Shown here: positions 1 through 5,700 of the stretch, in pieces
Layout of the letters: each line of letters starts with the position of its first letter
Position numbering within the stretch: the first letter of the stretch is position 1
Source of the DNA: a virus
Lineage: Duplodnaviria > Heunggongvirae > Uroviricota > Caudoviricetes
DNA: 5,700 nucleotides
Reading direction: 5' to 3' (one strand)
Virus record (IMG/VR): IMGVR_UViG_2778261535_000007
Coordinates: 1 to 5,700 of that record
Translations under genes and position numbers: made by a program
The notes under the pieces: model-generated
Database searches by the model: none
What the model was told of the DNA's origin: nothing
The model's input: only the letters and a program-made list of their open reading frames with translations

Positions 1-1434
1 ATGCTGTCTTTAGAAGATAGATTAAAGTCATGTGGTACAATAGAATTGTATAATGAGAAAGCTAAACAACATAATGTAATAATAAAAAACACGGAGGATG
101 CATTAAAAAAAATAATTTCAAGAATCAACACCGCTCAAGAATTAGTATCTTCAATTGAAAATAATTTCAGTATATATCGTTCTAAAAAACAGGATAAAGG
201 AAAGAAAAAGAACGCCTTCGAGCGGTTGATGAACTCTATTAAGGTAGAAAAGGAATTATTTGTTGAGGAAGTGAAATATAATAATTTTCTAAAGGGTTTA
301 AATAAAGAATATGAAGAATTTTATAAGGCGGCTTATGATTTCAAAAGAACCAAAGAGTTGCAGATTCTTGCTGGAATAAATAATTCTATAGTGCATTATT
401 ATAATGAAATAAATAAACATGATGACGATAGCGAAAAATTGAACGATATATCGTTTGTTTATGTTGAGTCTTTGAAATCATATCGATTACAACTTGATAT
501 CAACGGTGTTCCGGCTGATGCTTTTGTTAGACTGTCCGAGGGACATCTTAAATCATTAGGGCTGGCAATACTTTTAGCATTGGCGAAAAAGAAACAATCT
601 CAATTTATTGTTTTCGATGATGTAGTTAATGCTATAGATACTGAGCATAGGTCTAATATAATTAATACATTCTTAACTGATCCGTATATTAAAAGAACAC
701 AAAAGATAATCACCACTCATGATAAATTGTTCTGGGAATTGTATAGCAATCGAGAAAAGAGTTTAGGTAATGGGGAGTTCTCAAGTTTTATTCTTGAGTG
801 CTATCCTCATGGAATTCATTTTGAGGAGCGCGATATTTCCTTTGAGGGAAAAATATCAGAAAGTTTAGAACACTATGATATTCGGCAGGCGCTTATTTAC
901 TGTCGTATCTGGTTTGAGTCATTAGCAACCGAACATTGTGTAGCGTCAGAATTAAGTCTTACAGCAAGTTTTACTAACAGGGATTATGTAAAGCCAAATT
1001 TACTTAAAGTTAGTTTGGAGAAAATGTACGCGGTACTTATTGGTTCTTTAGGCGATAGATTGGAAAATATTAATGAAATTAAAAATAATTTTTTGAGCTG
1101 GGGGATACAAAATCAGGAACACCATGCTTTTAGCGAAAATAACTATAATATAATTCATTCCAAGACTAGCCAGGAAATACAGGTTATATTTGATTCGATT
1201 AGGAAGTTTAAAATACAACTATCACCAACAGTTAGTCTTGTTAGTTTGACTGATCAACTTTTATCACTAAATGATAAAATAAATGCCATTGAAAATAGAA
1301 TTCAAAGTGCCAATCCTGCAGTTCCAGTGGATGTTATTCGAAAATGGAGTAATGATAAATCTAGATTAGTGAAAGAAAAAGAAAAAGTAGATGAGTTGAA
1401 GGTCTATTGTGAAAGCTGTATCCCTCAAGTTTAA
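1..1434 (+). CDS. ABC/SMC/RecF-like ATPase, C-terminal part (5'-partial at window edge), fused to an uncharacterised ~230-aa C-terminal domain; candidate anti-phage defence protein
   Basis: Uninterrupted 477-codon ORF ending in TAA at 1432..1434. It contains an ABC signature-like motif LSEGH (nt 532..546), a Walker B-like FIVFDD (nt 604..621), a D-loop-like AID, and an H-loop-like KIITTHD (nt ~703..723). No Walker A/P-loop lies N-terminal to these within the window, so the true start is probably upstream and the ATG at position 1 probably internal. The N-terminal ~170 aa are Lys/Glu-rich and helical-looking. GC is about 28-30% (counted on the first 60 nt), against >50% in the adjacent phage genes. 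Confidence 0.7.
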   Translation: MLSLEDRLKSCGTIELYNEKAKQHNVIIKNTEDALKKIISRINTAQELVSSIENNFSIYRSKKQDKGKKKNAFERLMNSIKVEKELFVEEVKYNNFLKGLNKEYEEFYKAAYDFKRTKELQILAGINNSIVHYYNEINKHDDDSEKLNDISFVYVESLKSYRLQLDINGVPADAFVRLSEGHLKSLGLAILLALAKKKQSQFIVFDDVVNAIDTEHRSNIINTFLTDPYIKRTQKIITTHDKLFWELYSNREKSLGNGEFSSFILECYPHGIHFEERDISFEGKISESLEHYDIRQALIYCRIWFESLATEHCVASELSLTASFTNRDYVKPNLLKVSLEKMYAVLIGSLGDRLENINEIKNNFLSWGIQNQEHHAFSENNYNIIHSKTSQEIQVIFDSIRKFKIQLSPTVSLVSLTDQLLSLNDKINAIENRIQSANPAVPVDVIRKWSNDKSRLVKEKEKVDELKVYCESCIPQV

Positions 1435-1444
1435 AATTAAAATC

Positions 1445-1465
1445 AAGCCCCGTTTTTCGGGGCTT
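1445..1465. terminator. Bidirectional intrinsic terminator hairpin between convergent genes
   Basis: Perfect 8-bp GC-rich stem AAGCCCCG (1445..1452) / CGGGGCTT (1458..1465) with a TTTTT loop. On the minus-strand transcript the stem is followed by GAUUUUAAUUUUA; on the plus-strand transcript by GGUUAUAUUAAUU. It lies 10 nt after the stop of the + gene (1432..1434) and 2 nt after the stop of the - gene (1468..1470). Confidence 0.6.
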
Positions 1466-1467
1466 GG

Positions 1468-1794
1468 TTATATTAATTGATTACTGAGTAGATCCAACGC
1501 AAGTTGTTTTTCTTCCGGCTTAAGTCGGTCAATCAGGAATTTAACCAGCTTGTTGCCGGTCAGCCCGCTGGGGCTGAGGGTATGTGAAAACTGGGCGTTA
1601 AAAACAAAGGTGTGGCCGCATTCAACTTCCGTGCAGGCGCAGTATAAATCAGCCAGTTTTTTGTCTTTCCAGTCAGATTTACGAATGATGGCCGGTGAGC
1701 CGCATTCAGGACATTTAATTTTAAAAACTCGCATGTTCACCATCCCGCACGCCATTGCTAACAATGGGGATGATTTTAACTTAACTGCGCTCAT
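1468..1794 (-). CDS. Ogr/Delta-family C4 zinc-finger protein (putative late-gene transcriptional activator)
   Basis: The protein carries C-P-E-C, then 22 residues, then C-X4-C (CPECGSPAIIRKSDWKDKKLADLYCACTEVECGHTF). This C-X2-C-X22-C-X4-C spacing, with a conserved Y before the third Cys and TF after the fourth, matches P2 Ogr / P4 Delta as I recall them. Its ATG (1794..1792) overlaps the portal stop codon (ATGA). The real start could instead be an internal Met (for example MRVFKIKCPECG), giving about 88 aa. Confidence 0.7.
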   Translation of the reverse strand: MSAVKLKSSPLLAMACGMVNMRVFKIKCPECGSPAIIRKSDWKDKKLADLYCACTEVECGHTFVFNAQFSHTLSPSGLTGNKLVKFLIDRLKPEEKQLALDLLSNQLI

Positions 1795-2852
1795 TTTTCG
1801 CCCTTTTCGGTGGTAATTGTCGGGATATCCACGTCAAAAACCAGGTGCAAGTGTGCGGGGATCTCCGGGTCATTGTTGACGCCGTTCATTAGCTTGCGCT
1901 GCAAGGGGATAACTTCATCCTTGCGATAGGTTGTGCGGGCGGTTTCAGGGTTTCCCATTACCGCGCCGTTGGTCGGGATGATACCCGCCAGGCCAGCGGG
2001 GAAACGGTGGGCGGTAAAGATATCCTGTGCGGTGATCCCTTTGATGTTGGCAAATTCATCCTTTGCGCTGACTTCGCCCACTGGCATGATTTTAACCCCT
2101 TCCGGGTCGCCCTTCGGGATGTTGATAAACATATTGCGGAAGTTACCCAGCCCTTTGGACTGGGCGATCTTCTCTTTGATTTCGTTTTCCATTTCCAGCG
2201 TCAGATTGGGATCGCTGGTATAGAGAATAAAGCCCATGTGCGCCCCGTTATTGTAGTAACGGCGCCGGAAGATGGTTGCCTCACTGTTGAGTAACACCGA
2301 ATGGATGCCGCCGATATAGTCAGGCAGGCCATATACCTGCTGGCGCGGGTCGTACATTTTAAAAAAGACGATGTCTTCCGGGTCATAGATAAGCGCTGGC
2401 CCTTCCTGCAGAACAGCAAACGACCCGTCTTTTCGGCAGCGCAGATACAGCGACGGCAGCGGCATCAGGTCGATCACTTCCCCGAATACGTTACGAATTT
2501 TCAGAATCGCGACGTCACCAAATAGCATGTAATCAAAGACAGCCTGTTCGACCAGGTCAGGTGTCAGGCCGCCGCCGATGTAGCCACCGGCCACCATATT
2601 GCGCCGCGCATACAGTACCCCGCCGTGCTGGCCGTTAAGGTTCGGCAACTGGGCCAGCGCCAGGCGATCAATCGGAAGTCGCCAGTGGTCATACTCATTG
2701 TCATACCAGATATTGTGATAATCCGTGCCGGTCGTCAGGATGGGTTCGGGTTCGCCAAATGTGATCACGCTTCCGCGCCCTGGCGTGAAGGTTTCAACCT
2801 TGTTGCCGATCATGGACCTGAATTTTTTATTATTACGCTGTTTCTTTGTCAT
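1791..2852 (-). CDS. Q: Phage portal protein, P2 gpQ-like
   Basis: 353-aa ORF with conserved P2-family portal blocks as recalled (YGLPDY...LLNSEATIFRRRYY.NG.H.GFI, KG.GNFRN.F...P, EVSAKD.F.NIK). It lies immediately downstream of and overlapping the terminase ATPase gene, the same P-then-Q order as in P2. Confidence 0.93.
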   Translation of the reverse strand: MTKKQRNNKKFRSMIGNKVETFTPGRGSVITFGEPEPILTTGTDYHNIWYDNEYDHWRLPIDRLALAQLPNLNGQHGGVLYARRNMVAGGYIGGGLTPDLVEQAVFDYMLFGDVAILKIRNVFGEVIDLMPLPSLYLRCRKDGSFAVLQEGPALIYDPEDIVFFKMYDPRQQVYGLPDYIGGIHSVLLNSEATIFRRRYYNNGAHMGFILYTSDPNLTLEMENEIKEKIAQSKGLGNFRNMFINIPKGDPEGVKIMPVGEVSAKDEFANIKGITAQDIFTAHRFPAGLAGIIPTNGAVMGNPETARTTYRKDEVIPLQRKLMNGVNNDPEIPAHLHLVFDVDIPTITTEKGEK

Positions 2853-4660
2853 GCTGCTTTCCCAAAATACCAGCCCGATGGGCGGTCATATTCGTGATCG
2901 ATAGGTTCGTTAATTATGGCGTGCGAGATAGCGAAGAAAACATCTGCATGGCCGGTCGCGTCTGAACGTTCGGCAACAAATGTCAGCGCGTTGCCGCTGT
3001 TGGTTGTTGTGCGTCGGATAGCCATAAAGCTGGCCGGAATTTCGACGCGCTCTTTGTTCGTTTCGTCTACGGCGTCTTTTGCCCATTCGATGCGTTTACG
3101 CTCGACAACGTCGATCATCTTCATTACCAGACGGTTTTTGCTTTCGACGCTGTAAAGAATGGGTGTGGCTTCGCGCGGTGCAAACTTGCTGACCAGGTCA
3201 TAAACGCCCTTACCTATGCCGGTTGTATCGATCCCGATGTAAGTGATGTTAAAGCGGCGCATAAGCAGCTTTATCTGGTCGGCCTGCCAGCTGAAGTTAA
3301 AGCCCTGCCATTGCCAGACGGCCAGCACGCGGAAGCGCTCGCCGTCCTCTATGGGGGGCGCGATTAACACAAAGGTGGAGTTGTCGCCGGATCGTGACGG
3401 GTCGAAGCCTGCCCATACTTCGCGATTGCCGAAGGGCCGCGCAGCGGTCAGATCAAAGTCGCCCCATGTGGCCCGGTCCACTTCACAGCCGACAAGCGCG
3501 GAGAACTTGAACACCGCGTCCTTACTGTCAACGAACTGGCACATGTAGAGCATGGCGAACGCGGTCGGGCTGTATTTGTTGCGCAGCCGTTCAATATCGA
3601 CAAGCGTACCGAGGCCACCTTCGATAGCGTCTTCCATCGTGATGATGTAGCGCCAGATCTGGTCCGGGCAGAGAATACCCTGGCCCATTTCGCTTTCTGT
3701 CGGGAACTCCACACCTTTGCGTTTCGGGTCGTCCCCGCGCCAGGCTTCGCCAGTCCAGACCGGGTAAGCCTGGTGCGTTTTCGCGCTGGGCGTCGAAAAG
3801 TAGGTCGTCCGGTATTTGTTATGCGTTGCCATTGCGCTGGCAACTTCGTGCAGGCGCGTGAATTTCGGGATCCAGAAAACCTCATCGCCATACAGGTGGC
3901 CGTTAAAGCCCTGTGCTGTGCTGGCGTTCGTGGACAAAAAGCGCAGTATTGCGCCGTTACTGAGGCGGATATTTTTACCCGTCAGCGTCACGCCGAAATG
4001 GTTCTGGGCGATCTGGACGATGTATTCGCGGAAGATTTCCGACTGGGATCGGCTTGCAGAGAAAAAGACCTGGTTATCACCGGTAATGACAGCATCTTCG
4101 AATGCTTCCCAGGCGAAATAATAGGTCATACCCACCTGGCGGCTTTTCAGAATGAAGCGCCAGTCTTCGCCTTTATGTTCGCGGCAGTGCAGCTGGTACT
4201 CGAAGAGATGTTCCCGCGCCCAGGTGTCGAGCATTTCCGCTGTAATACCGGAAACGTCGTTTTTCTTATACCGGCGCTTTCTTTCCCCAGGTTCCCCGCC
4301 TGCGCTGCTGAGGCAGTACCCTTCACCATCATAAGCCGCTTTCTGGGCCTGAATTTCTGCCAGCTTTTCGGCGTGCTTGTTGCGCTGCGCCATGAGTTTC
4401 ACATGGTGAGCAATCAGATCGCGCAGTTCTTCCAGTTCCAGCGCTGTTTTTTTCTCGCGGCGGGAGAGCTGGTCGATACGGCGGGCGATGACATTTTCCA
4501 CCGATTCAACAGGCAGCAGTGATGCCCACTTCCCGACGTCAGCCCAGTGGTAAATTGTACGCGGTGGAATATTCAGTTCCTGCGCAATATCTTTCGGCGT
4601 CCAGCTTTTTATATAAAGCGTGCGGGCCGCTTCTTTTAATTCATCGGAATATTTAGCCAT
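2849..4660 (-). CDS. P: Terminase ATPase (large) subunit, P2 gpP-like
   Basis: 603-aa ORF of typical size and position for P2 gpP, divergent from the scaffold gene. Its stop overlaps the portal start by 4 nt. The N-terminus looks helix-turn-helix-like (TPKDIAQELNIPPRTIYHW). Confidence 0.92.
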   Translation of the reverse strand: MAKYSDELKEAARTLYIKSWTPKDIAQELNIPPRTIYHWADVGKWASLLPVESVENVIARRIDQLSRREKKTALELEELRDLIAHHVKLMAQRNKHAEKLAEIQAQKAAYDGEGYCLSSAGGEPGERKRRYKKNDVSGITAEMLDTWAREHLFEYQLHCREHKGEDWRFILKSRQVGMTYYFAWEAFEDAVITGDNQVFFSASRSQSEIFREYIVQIAQNHFGVTLTGKNIRLSNGAILRFLSTNASTAQGFNGHLYGDEVFWIPKFTRLHEVASAMATHNKYRTTYFSTPSAKTHQAYPVWTGEAWRGDDPKRKGVEFPTESEMGQGILCPDQIWRYIITMEDAIEGGLGTLVDIERLRNKYSPTAFAMLYMCQFVDSKDAVFKFSALVGCEVDRATWGDFDLTAARPFGNREVWAGFDPSRSGDNSTFVLIAPPIEDGERFRVLAVWQWQGFNFSWQADQIKLLMRRFNITYIGIDTTGIGKGVYDLVSKFAPREATPILYSVESKNRLVMKMIDVVERKRIEWAKDAVDETNKERVEIPASFMAIRRTTTNSGNALTFVAERSDATGHADVFFAISHAIINEPIDHEYDRPSGWYFGKAA

Positions 4661-4837
4661 GCGGCTATTATGGCGGGATTATTTTGCGGAATTGATAATT
4701 AAATATCGGTAAAAGGTGGCTATTCAGTTATAACCGAATACATAAGAAATAAAGCGGTCGCGCTGTTTTAATCAATTCGCAATACTGACCACCACAAACG
4801 AATCATTGTTATTTAAATTTATTATTAAAGGTCAGTT
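4661..4837. promoter_or_regulatory. Divergent late-promoter region between the P-Q operon (leftward) and the O operon (rightward)
   Basis: 177-bp AT-rich intergenic region between two divergent start codons, at the position of the P and O late promoters in P2. It contains an imperfect Ogr-box-like dyad, TGT-N12-GCA, at 4764..4781 (consensus TGT-N12-ACA) and an AAAGG Shine-Dalgarno 6 nt before the ATG at 4838. No clean -35 is seen, which is expected for activator-dependent late promoters. Confidence 0.45.
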
Positions 4838-5700
4838 ATGCCGCAACCTCATTACCGCACGGATTGGCTATGTATTGCCACATCTGGACAGGCTGTGGAC
4901 GGTCGCACCATTGAACCGCAATGGTTGATTGATGCGGCAGAAACCTACACCCGCAAAACCTACACGGCCATGATTTGGCCGCACCATCCGCAATGCGATA
5001 TCAGCGAACGTGAATTTACCTGCAATCTGGGGGAAGTGGACGCGCTGAAAGTGGAAACGGAAGGTGATGTCACGAAGTTATATGCCCAGTTAATCCCGAA
5101 TCAATTTTTAATTGAAGCCAATCGGCAGGGGCAAAAGTTATTTACGTCAGCAGAATTTGTCACTGATTTTGCAGGCAGTGGTCGTGAATATCTTTTTGGG
5201 CTGGCTGTGACGGATATTCCGGCAAGTCTGGGAACGGAAAAACTTAAATTCGTTTTAGCCGGTGAAGAAAAGGACGCCGAGCGCGGGAGTCTGGAAACAT
5301 TCAGTTTAGGAAAATTACAGACAAGTAAACCGGATAAAAAAAATTCTTTCTGGTCGCGTTTATTTTCGGCCAGTAAAGATTTTACGCCAACCCCAGAGCC
5401 AAACACTGATAAGCCCACCGAGGGCGACGGAGAAAAAATGGAAGAATTAAAAGCGCTCATTCAGCAAATGCTGGATCTGCTTAAAAGCGGTAAAGACGCC
5501 GCAACGGGTGATGCTGACACGGTTGATACCCCGGAACAGGCCGCTGATGTGGTGGCAGATGTTGCCGCCCAGATCGCTGATGCGGCCGACGAGGTGGCTG
5601 AGCTGGCGCAGGACGTTATCGAAAACCCGGAAGACGAAGTCAAAGCGGAAGAATTCAGCGCCGCCAAAGCCAACCTGGCAAAAGTCATGAAGTCATTCAA
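4838..5700 (+). CDS. O: Capsid scaffolding protein, P2 gpO-like (3'-partial, runs off the window)
   Basis: ATG at 4838 preceded by an in-frame TAA (4826..4828) and an AAAGG SD. I translated the frame by hand and found no stop through 5700 (287 codons). It is absent from the ORF track apparently only because it has no stop in the window. The Ala/Asp/Glu-rich C-terminal part and its position divergent from P match gpO. Confidence 0.85.
   Translation, partial: MPQPHYRTDWLCIATSGQAVDGRTIEPQWLIDAAETYTRKTYTAMIWPHHPQCDISEREFTCNLGEVDALKVETEGDVTKLYAQLIPNQFLIEANRQGQKLFTSAEFVTDFAGSGREYLFGLAVTDIPASLGTEKLKFVLAGEEKDAERGSLETFSLGKLQTSKPDKKNSFWSRLFSASKDFTPTPEPNTDKPTEGDGEKMEELKALIQQMLDLLKSGKDAATGDADTVDTPEQAADVVADVAAQIADAADEVAELAQDVIENPEDEVKAEEFSAAKANLAKVMKSF

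Follow-up and report, generated by a model that had tools for sequence, protein, structure and literature searches.

Layout of the window and its cargo slot

The subject of this study is an AT-rich gene at the beginning of a 5,700-nt stretch of DNA (hereafter the window; positions 1-5,700 of the IMG/VR record IMGVR_UViG_2778261535_000007), which belongs to a P2-like prophage of Salmonella. As judged from the comparisons described below, the product of this gene is probably an uncharacterised RloC-like abortive-infection protein, unannotated and specified by a single gene. The open reading frame (ORF) runs on the plus strand without a stop codon from base 1 through 477 codons and ends with the stop codon at 1432-1434. 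Its GC content is 31.5% over 1-1434, versus 51.7% over 1468-5700. Along the window, the GC content is 28-37% over 1-1350 and climbs to 50-61% from about position 1800. The gene is convergent with the minus-strand operon of ogr-like, portal and terminase genes (Table 1). An earlier reading of the window (hereafter the original prediction) had described an AT-rich gene convergent with the phage operon, and the difference in composition and the opposite strands confirmed this description.

From position 1485 onward, the window is 98% identical to the Salmonella phages SW5, SW3 and SI7 (Peduoviridae, Irrigatiovirus). In SW5, the slot between the replication endonuclease gene gpA and the ogr-like and portal genes holds different cargo, a 66-residue hypothetical gene and a small DNA methylase gene (L001:5265-5957). 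Since SW5 carries other genes there, the AT-rich ORF represents variable cargo of the gpA-portal slot, which two papers single out as the foremost defence hotspot in P2-like phages. A P2-like prophage of E. coli APEC O1 carries a bona fide RloC gene between gpA and the portal gene (738 residues; L027:6433-8649, minus strand; NC_008563.1, 925932-928148; Pfam AAA_13, E=2e-111). A true RloC is therefore found in exactly the slot of the window gene. In the supplementary table of Davidov & Kaufmann (2008), the APEC O1 RloC orthologue was listed as flanked by 'phage replication initiation, capsid'. The methylase of SW5, the RloC of APEC O1 and the literature together bear out the proposal that the gene is horizontally acquired cargo in the P2 gpA-portal hotspot.

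The ORF in the window is the C-terminal half of a longer gene. Residue 4 of the window protein aligns with residue 464 of the 957-residue homologue P0052, which places about 463 codons upstream of the window, and full-length homologues have 939-957 residues, versus 477 codons in the window. Two viral contigs in IMG/VR, L017 and L016, were found to carry intact copies, the C-terminal halves of which are 70-71% identical to the window protein. P0282 is a further protein of this 939/940-residue class, about 70% identical. The alignment with P0052 and the intact 939/940-residue relatives support the expectation that the gene continues upstream. The ATG at position 1 was considered as the true start and rejected, because the alignment to full-length homologues begins in the middle of the protein. 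It is most likely a coincidence of the cut point.

In L017, gpA (Pfam Phage_GPA, E=7e-101) is followed by the ATPase gene, the ogr-like gene, the portal gene and the terminase gene. This contig is collinear with positions 343-5700 of the window at 75.5% nucleotide identity, and its slot holds one gene between gpA and ogr. L016 has another P2-like backbone; there, too, gpA is followed by the ATPase gene, and additional ORFs precede the portal gene. The GC content of the cargo gene is about 31-32% in the window phage, L017 and L016, and that of the core is 52-56%. The presence of this AT-rich single gene in three phages and two backbones indicates that the cargo behaves as a mobile single-gene module.

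Several further observations were made on the slot and its surroundings. Between SW5 and the window, the cargo is swapped and the flanking core genes are 98% identical. The extra ORFs of L016, which encode 245, 126 and 79 residues and lie between the ATPase and portal genes (L016:3862-5469), have no Pfam match and may be further cargo. In APEC O1, the RloC and portal genes share a strand, an orientation opposite to that of the window cargo. A second cargo site of the APEC O1 prophage, between the genes for tail-fibre assembly and the tail sheath (L027:23767-29521), contains a gene for a 'P-loop ATPase, Sll1717 family' protein and an element of the IS21 family, by which the sheath gene is truncated. 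The ogr-like gene between the cargo and portal genes, which the original prediction did not mention, lies directly downstream of the portal gene with a 4-nt overlap with its end. Its position differs from that of the classical P2 ogr site near att. The annotations of SW5, of L017 and of 19 E. coli prophages (90% identity) show the same ogr-like/portal arrangement.

Table 1. Features of the window and the intact copies of the cargo gene (AF2, AlphaFold2; pLDDT, predicted local distance difference test)
Feature	Position	Strand	Evidence or remark
C-terminal 477 codons and stop of a gene for a predicted Rad50-like ABC ATPase/HEPN-like fusion of about 940 residues	1-1434	+	70% identity to L017, L016 and P0282 proteins
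Descending coiled-coil arm, back to ATPase head, residues 12-123	34-369	+	AF2 single helix, pLDDT 74-93
ABC signature LSEGHLKSLGL	532-564	+	LSEGHL invariant in 20-45 homologues
Walker B FIVFDDV	604-624	+	FDDVVNAID invariant
D-loop NAID	628-639	+	
H-loop TTHD	712-723	+	
Core of HEPN-like all-helical C-terminal domain, residues 281-407	841-1221	+	
R302-x3-E306	904-918	+	Invariant
N371-Q-E-H-H375	1111-1125	+	Invariant
C-terminal antiparallel helical hairpin, residues 409-473	1225-1419	+	AF2 pLDDT 84-97; alignment
Bidirectional terminator-like hairpin, GC-rich, T-runs flanking on both strands	1441-1469		Between convergent cargo and ogr-like genes
Ogr/Delta-like zinc-finger gene, 108 residues, at phage-core edge of cargo slot	1468-1794	-	Pfam Ogr_Delta, E=2.6e-17
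Portal gene, Q-like	1791-2852	-	Pfam Phage_portal; SW5 annotation
Large terminase gene, P-like	2849-4660	-	Pfam Terminase_6N/6C, Terminase_5; SW5 annotation
Scaffold gene	After terminase gene	+	
Intact copy, 939 codons	L017:6609-9428		70% identity class
Intact copy, 940 codons	L016:1039-3861		

Architecture of the ATPase and its C-terminal domain

The order of motifs was derived from full-length members of the family, in the numbering of the L017 protein. An N-terminal extension of about 85 residues precedes the Walker A motif APNGGGKSS (about residue 121) and a Q-loop-like FIDRNRLQEF motif. These are followed by a long coiled coil broken by CPLC or CPAC at about residue 374, the ABC signature LSEGHL (642), the Walker B/D-loop FIVFDDVVNAID (666), the H-loop TTHD (702) and then about 235 residues. 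The CxxC hook in the middle of the coiled coil reads CPLC at 374/375 in the L017 and L016 proteins and CPAC in the Pseudomonas members. In the window protein, the helix of residues 12-123 aligns with the coiled coil after the hook of the homologues. The signature, Walker B, D-loop and H-loop motifs of the truncated ABC/SMC-superfamily ATPase that had been described for this gene were all located, and there was, as described, no Walker A motif within the window. The Pfam model SMC_N matched the window protein with E=9e-9 and 35.5 bits, under its gathering score of 40. The closest solved structure to the head is Rad50. The original prediction had overlooked two parts of the protein, the HEPN-like C-terminal domain of about 200 residues and the Rad50-type CxxC zinc hook of the full-length form.

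The C-terminal 200 residues or so make up a separate conserved domain with a predicted HEPN-like fold. The core of this domain fits a four-helix up-and-down bundle of about 120-130 residues, and the HEPN protein 2hsb was its best full-domain structural match in two models, among many helical-bundle matches at similar Z; Foldseek against the PDB gave nothing at E<0.6. No match for the domain was obtained from Pfam (E<=10), NCBIfam, PHROGs or PDB sequence profiles, or with Foldseek-PDB. The putative HEPN assignment is, in this study, a structural one only.

Over 45 sequences, 32-39% identical to the domain of the window protein, 22 mostly polar positions of the C-terminal domain are invariant. 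They include D293, R295, R302, E306, W367, N371, E373, H374, H375, F377, N383, H386, S390 and E392. Invariant polar residues at this density speak for an active site in the C-terminal domain, and point to an active or ligand-binding site and not a scaffold. The HEPN superfamily is marked by an Rx4-6H motif where helix 3 passes into helix 4, together with a conserved acidic residue in an N-terminal helix. In the window family, E306 is located in the first long helix and H374/H375 end the third core helix; both are invariant. The position of the arginine of the HEPN motif (Rx4-6H) is occupied by R or K in a few members (P0016, P0158, P0160 and P0012). HEPN families that lack the arginine but retain the histidine are known. 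Some family members (P0027, P0028) lack the C-terminal hairpin that follows the core. A protein of 145 residues, P0315, consists of the HEPN-like core alone, with 45% identity to residues 280-407 of the window protein; this may represent a domain that exists by itself or a fragment from a contig edge.

Distribution and neighbourhoods of the family

Homologues of the window protein were found with E values down to 2e-207, and the ORF is thus a real gene and not a chance ORF. A profile search gave about 400 relatives, mostly intact proteins of 940-960 residues annotated as 'AAA family ATPase', from Pseudomonas, Achromobacter and Halomonas. When 1.84 billion cluster representatives were searched exhaustively with phmmer, 35 clusters (at 50% identity) were found at E<=1e-30, nearly all of 915-968 residues, and 220 at E<=1e-10. 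Megablast and blastn searches of 5,426 complete E. coli genomes did not detect the gene. A tblastn search found no copy in the GenBank phage collection, and the plasmid collection contained no copy of the window family, only the sister family described below.

A first word-indexed search had given fragments only, of at most 806 residues. The possibility that every homologue is split in two ORFs by a programmed frameshift or phase variation was rejected because of hundreds of intact proteins of 915-968 residues. The intact proteins found by the profile and exhaustive searches indicate that the split pattern is a sampling artefact plus some genuine pseudogenes. The disrupted homologues are L002:9528-12355, L003:9144-11974, L004:9107-11974 and L006:8769-11611, which are interrupted at four different positions, three by frameshifts and one by an in-frame stop codon that replaces a conserved Asp. 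The frameshift in L006 was seen in two independent assemblies (NCBI, Logan). These observations suggest a recurrent inactivation of the ATPase gene, possibly since it is costly.

The neighbourhoods of the homologues are varied and mobile. One homologue lies on an integrative and conjugative element (ICE) beside a complete Lamassu system (L002), and another adjoins Hachiman, a kinase-AbiJ protein and integrases. Further homologues were found on a relaxase-bearing contig, on the viral contig L018 and beside large DUF4365 proteins. The family gene stands alone on phages, an ICE, plasmid-like contigs and defence islands, and no conserved partner gene was present in any homologue locus examined. 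In two unrelated loci of Pseudomonas type, the DUF4365 proteins are encoded upstream of the ATPase gene in divergent orientation (L008:3760-7725, minus strand, 1321 residues; L004:8106-8831, minus strand, 241 residues). They could be a loose association or merely a neighbouring defence gene.

A sister family consists of 'AAA family ATPase' proteins of 860-900 residues, for example WP_102803754.1 on the Klebsiella variicola plasmid pNDM-IMP-2, where the gene adjoins a restriction endonuclease gene. Members (the five IMG/VR contigs L019-L023; L024:3342-5951; L025:2555-5224) are present in viral contigs as well as on conjugative plasmids. An alignment of the two families (BLASTP, E=8e-40) covers the ATPase, the region of the CxxC hook and the first helix of the C-terminal domain, and both share the LSEGH signature and the Walker B/D-loop FDDxVNAIDxxHR. 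From end to end, however, their C-terminal domains match weakly (hhalign E 0.002, probability 13%). The identity between the two families is 23%. The C-terminal domain of the sister family is shorter and lacks the hairpin, and its motif W-x-Y-L-N-x-G-T-H-D is closer to the R-Y-I-N-R-G-S-H of RloC.

Comparison with RloC and alternative explanations

RloC is built of the ABC motifs, a coiled coil of Rad50-like type that bears a CxxC zinc hook, and an anticodon nuclease at the C-terminal end (Davidov & Kaufmann 2008). The triad of the anticodon nuclease is Arg-X3-Glu-X36-52-His, and a Ser often precedes the His. The enzyme cuts the wobble nucleotide out of tRNA, and the RNase is switched on by a DNA-dependent ATPase under control of the zinc hook (Klaiman et al. 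2012). Its nuclease domain was later classed as HEPN (Anantharaman et al. 2013). RloC-type genes stand alone and are transferred laterally without an external silencer. The window family resembles RloC in that one polypeptide has an ABC head, interrupted by a coiled coil that bears the CxxC zinc hook, and, on the C-terminal side, a helical domain of putative HEPN type. The ABC motifs of this plan are all present, with Walker A (APNGGGKSS) taken from L017 and L016, and the zinc hook is present in the homologues. An invariant R-x3-E helix recalls the triad of RloC and PrrC, and an invariant His lies downstream, at another spacing than in RloC. From the location of the gene, the architecture of the protein and the contexts and sister family of the homologues, we consider that there is about an even chance that the window gene is the C-terminal half of a gene for a single-polypeptide anti-phage protein of about 940 residues with an RloC-like mechanism, located in a hotspot of the Salmonella prophage.

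A mechanism can be proposed on the basis of this resemblance. In the uninfected lysogen, the protein would form a dimer through the zinc hook and the coiled coil, in which the HEPN domains are kept apart or occluded. When another phage superinfects, the ends of its DNA or aberrant intermediates of its replication would stimulate the Rad50-like DNA-dependent ATPase. ATP-driven engagement of the heads would then join the two HEPN domains into a composite RNase site, which would cut tRNA (probably) or another RNA. The resulting halt of translation would abort the infection and protect the lysogen population, and hence the prophage.

A number of facts weigh against such an RloC-like function. No relationship to HEPN or RloC emerged from profile and hidden Markov model (HMM) searches. 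When the L017 protein was compared with the APEC O1 RloC by BLASTP, the best E was 0.18, at the P-loop only, and hhalign of the C-terminal-domain profiles of 18 window-family and 30 RloC sequences gave a probability of 0.2% (0.03% in the global mode). In place of the canonical HEPN arginine, the window protein and most of the family have glycine. The spacing from E to H is 68-69 residues, outside the range of 36-52 in RloC: the nearest invariant histidines to the invariant R302-x3-E306 are H374/H375 at X67-68, followed by H386 at X79, and no Ser precedes them. The four disrupted homologue loci, with frameshifts or a stop, also count here. Walker A and the zinc hook of this copy would lie upstream of the window, and the function of every family member is an inferred one.

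Direct homology to RloC was rejected, since BLASTP, AAA_13 and both local and global hhalign comparisons were negative for the C-terminal domain. The window fragment had no match to AAA_13 (PF13166), and full-length relatives scored 24.6-32.8 bits, under the gathering score of 36 and over the ATPase only, versus 374 bits over positions 11-713 of 713 for the APEC O1 RloC. Beyond the P-loop and signature motif, the window family has no detectable sequence similarity to RloC. It is about 200 residues longer, with the N-terminal extension, a longer coiled coil and the C-terminal hairpin, and has the motif W-x3-N-Q-E-H-H, versus R-Y-I-N-R-x-S-H in RloC. A bridge to RloC through the sister family was also considered. 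The N-x-G-[ST]-H motifs align, but the hhalign E is 0.14 with a probability of 0.4%, and this bridge was taken as a lead and not as proof.

Other known systems were weighed with PADLOC. The best model for full-length members was LmuB (PDLC03859), with E values of 1e-20 to 6e-22 for Pseudomonas members, 1.2e-20 for P0081 and 7.7e-10 for the L017 protein. The AriA, PtuA and GajA models matched weakly (E 1e-5 to 1e-11) at the P-loop or C-lobe; a TOPRIM domain was absent, and there was no DUF4435 or PtuB neighbour, so that OLD, Gabija, PARIS and Septu gave no assignment. The matches to mad3 and AbiLi were weak and generic. The CxC ABC ATPases DndD and PbeC need an obligate tandem DndE partner gene; no DndE-type partner was present in the loci examined, and the PADLOC models of DndD/PbeC gave E values of 1e-7 to 5e-4 only. 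The JGI labels 'DndD' and 'RecF' on homologues were rejected because of missing partner genes and sub-threshold scores (21.6 bits for NCBIfam RecF, versus a cutoff of 172). These weak matches, limited to the generic ATPase part, agree with the earlier statement that the protein could not be assigned to Old, GajA, AriA, PtuA or LmuB. Likewise, no confident known defence family was identified beyond the generic ATPase by Pfam, NCBIfam, PADLOC 2.0 or PHROGs, and a housekeeping identity as RecF, RecN or SbcC was not matched, as the RecF score is sub-threshold and the contexts are mobile and variable.

The LmuB match and the RecF similarity nevertheless lead to other explanations of the gene. The protein might be a Lamassu-type, SMC-like DNA sensor, in which the C-terminal domain is non-catalytic and serves regulation or oligomerisation, and killing is effected by a distant partner or by the ATPase itself on DNA through loop extrusion or clamping. 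LmuB, like the window family, is an SMC/Rad50-like ATPase with a coiled coil; one homologue is directly upstream of a complete LmuA/LmuB pair in L002; and both the lack of a nuclease fold among the Foldseek matches of the C-terminal domain and the missing HEPN arginine would be expected. The LmuB match, however, covers the ATPase only, versus E=1e-197 for the genuine LmuB of L002, and the LmuA/LmuB pair there is a separate Lamassu system, complete by itself. No LmuA- or LmuC-like gene lies in the phage slot (L017) or in L008 and L013, and L006 has no LmuA. The window family differs from Lamassu in an effector-like domain fused in cis, of another fold class than the Cap4 (PF14130) LmuA beside one homologue, and the 22 invariant residues suit an active or ligand site over a scaffold. 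We therefore regard the Lamassu-type explanation as unlikely. An accessory role in DNA repair or recombination of the SbcC/Rad50/RecN kind, in the service of phage replication or lysogeny and not of immunity, would fit the structural match of the head to Rad50, the Gene Ontology term 'double-strand break repair' that RefSeq gives to sister-family proteins and the weak similarity to RecF. Against it, the window family has no Mre11/SbcD-type nuclease partner, has an extra C-terminal domain compared with Rad50/SbcC, and is found on mobile elements. The slot is variable, and SW5, SW3 and SI7, with 98% identical flanks, lack the gene. Its AT-rich composition is foreign to the phage. The sporadic occurrence on ICEs, plasmids and defence islands, the absence from the E. 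coli genomes and the mere 35 clusters at E<=1e-30 do not correspond to a housekeeping distribution. Such a role is highly improbable.

It is also conceivable that this copy is a remnant without function, cut short or interrupted upstream (for example, with a start near the ATG at position 1) and left from the turnover of cargo in the hotspot. The fact that only the C-terminal half is visible and opens with an in-frame ATG would be compatible with a remnant, and the disrupted homologues, interrupted at different positions, indicate that the gene is sometimes inactivated. The 477 visible codons, on the other hand, are unbroken with all family-invariant residues intact, the collinear contig L017 has an intact gene of 939 codons, and pseudogenes of defence genes have been reported to be rare in P2 hotspots. 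A remnant is accordingly considered quite unlikely.

Returning to the RloC-like protein, the question of its novelty has two sides. Prophage-borne ABC-HEPN fusions (the PrrC/RloC/APECO1_4465 group), proposed to exclude other phages, were described by Anantharaman et al. (2013), and the window family resembles this group in its ABC ATPase, its putative C-terminal HEPN domain and its location in integrated prophages. The APECO1_4465-type protein is a member of AAA_13, whereas the window family is neither in AAA_13 nor listed in that group. What is already known is the prophage ABC-HEPN fusion and the presence of RloC in the gpA-portal slot, and what is new is the sequence-distinct family. The original prediction of a candidate novel defence component thus stands for an unannotated, sequence-distinct family, and does not stand for the domain plan, which was known from RloC and the ABC-HEPN prophage fusions of 2013. 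A bolder proposal, which we put forward tentatively and with some doubt, is that the family constitutes a distinct, unnamed single-gene system, in which a zinc-hook ATPase would control a divergent HEPN domain without the canonical Arg, using His-His and R-x3-E. Its target and chemistry would possibly differ from those of RloC, and it would be spread by P2-like phages, ICEs and plasmids in Enterobacterales, Pseudomonas and Firmicutes.

The family is missed by current resources (PADLOC 2.0, Pfam, NCBIfam, PHROGs), and its alignment could seed an HMM for defence annotation tools. On the RloC-like reading, the P2 gpA-portal hotspot in Salmonella would be seen to carry RloC-like cargo. The non-canonical HEPN motif of the window family, with tandem His and no Arg, and its extra N- and C-terminal modules could reveal how Rad50-like sensing is coupled to an RNase. 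If the protein is active, the ABC-HEPN proteins of abortive infection of the RloC/PrrC type would gain a branch with a distinct sequence.

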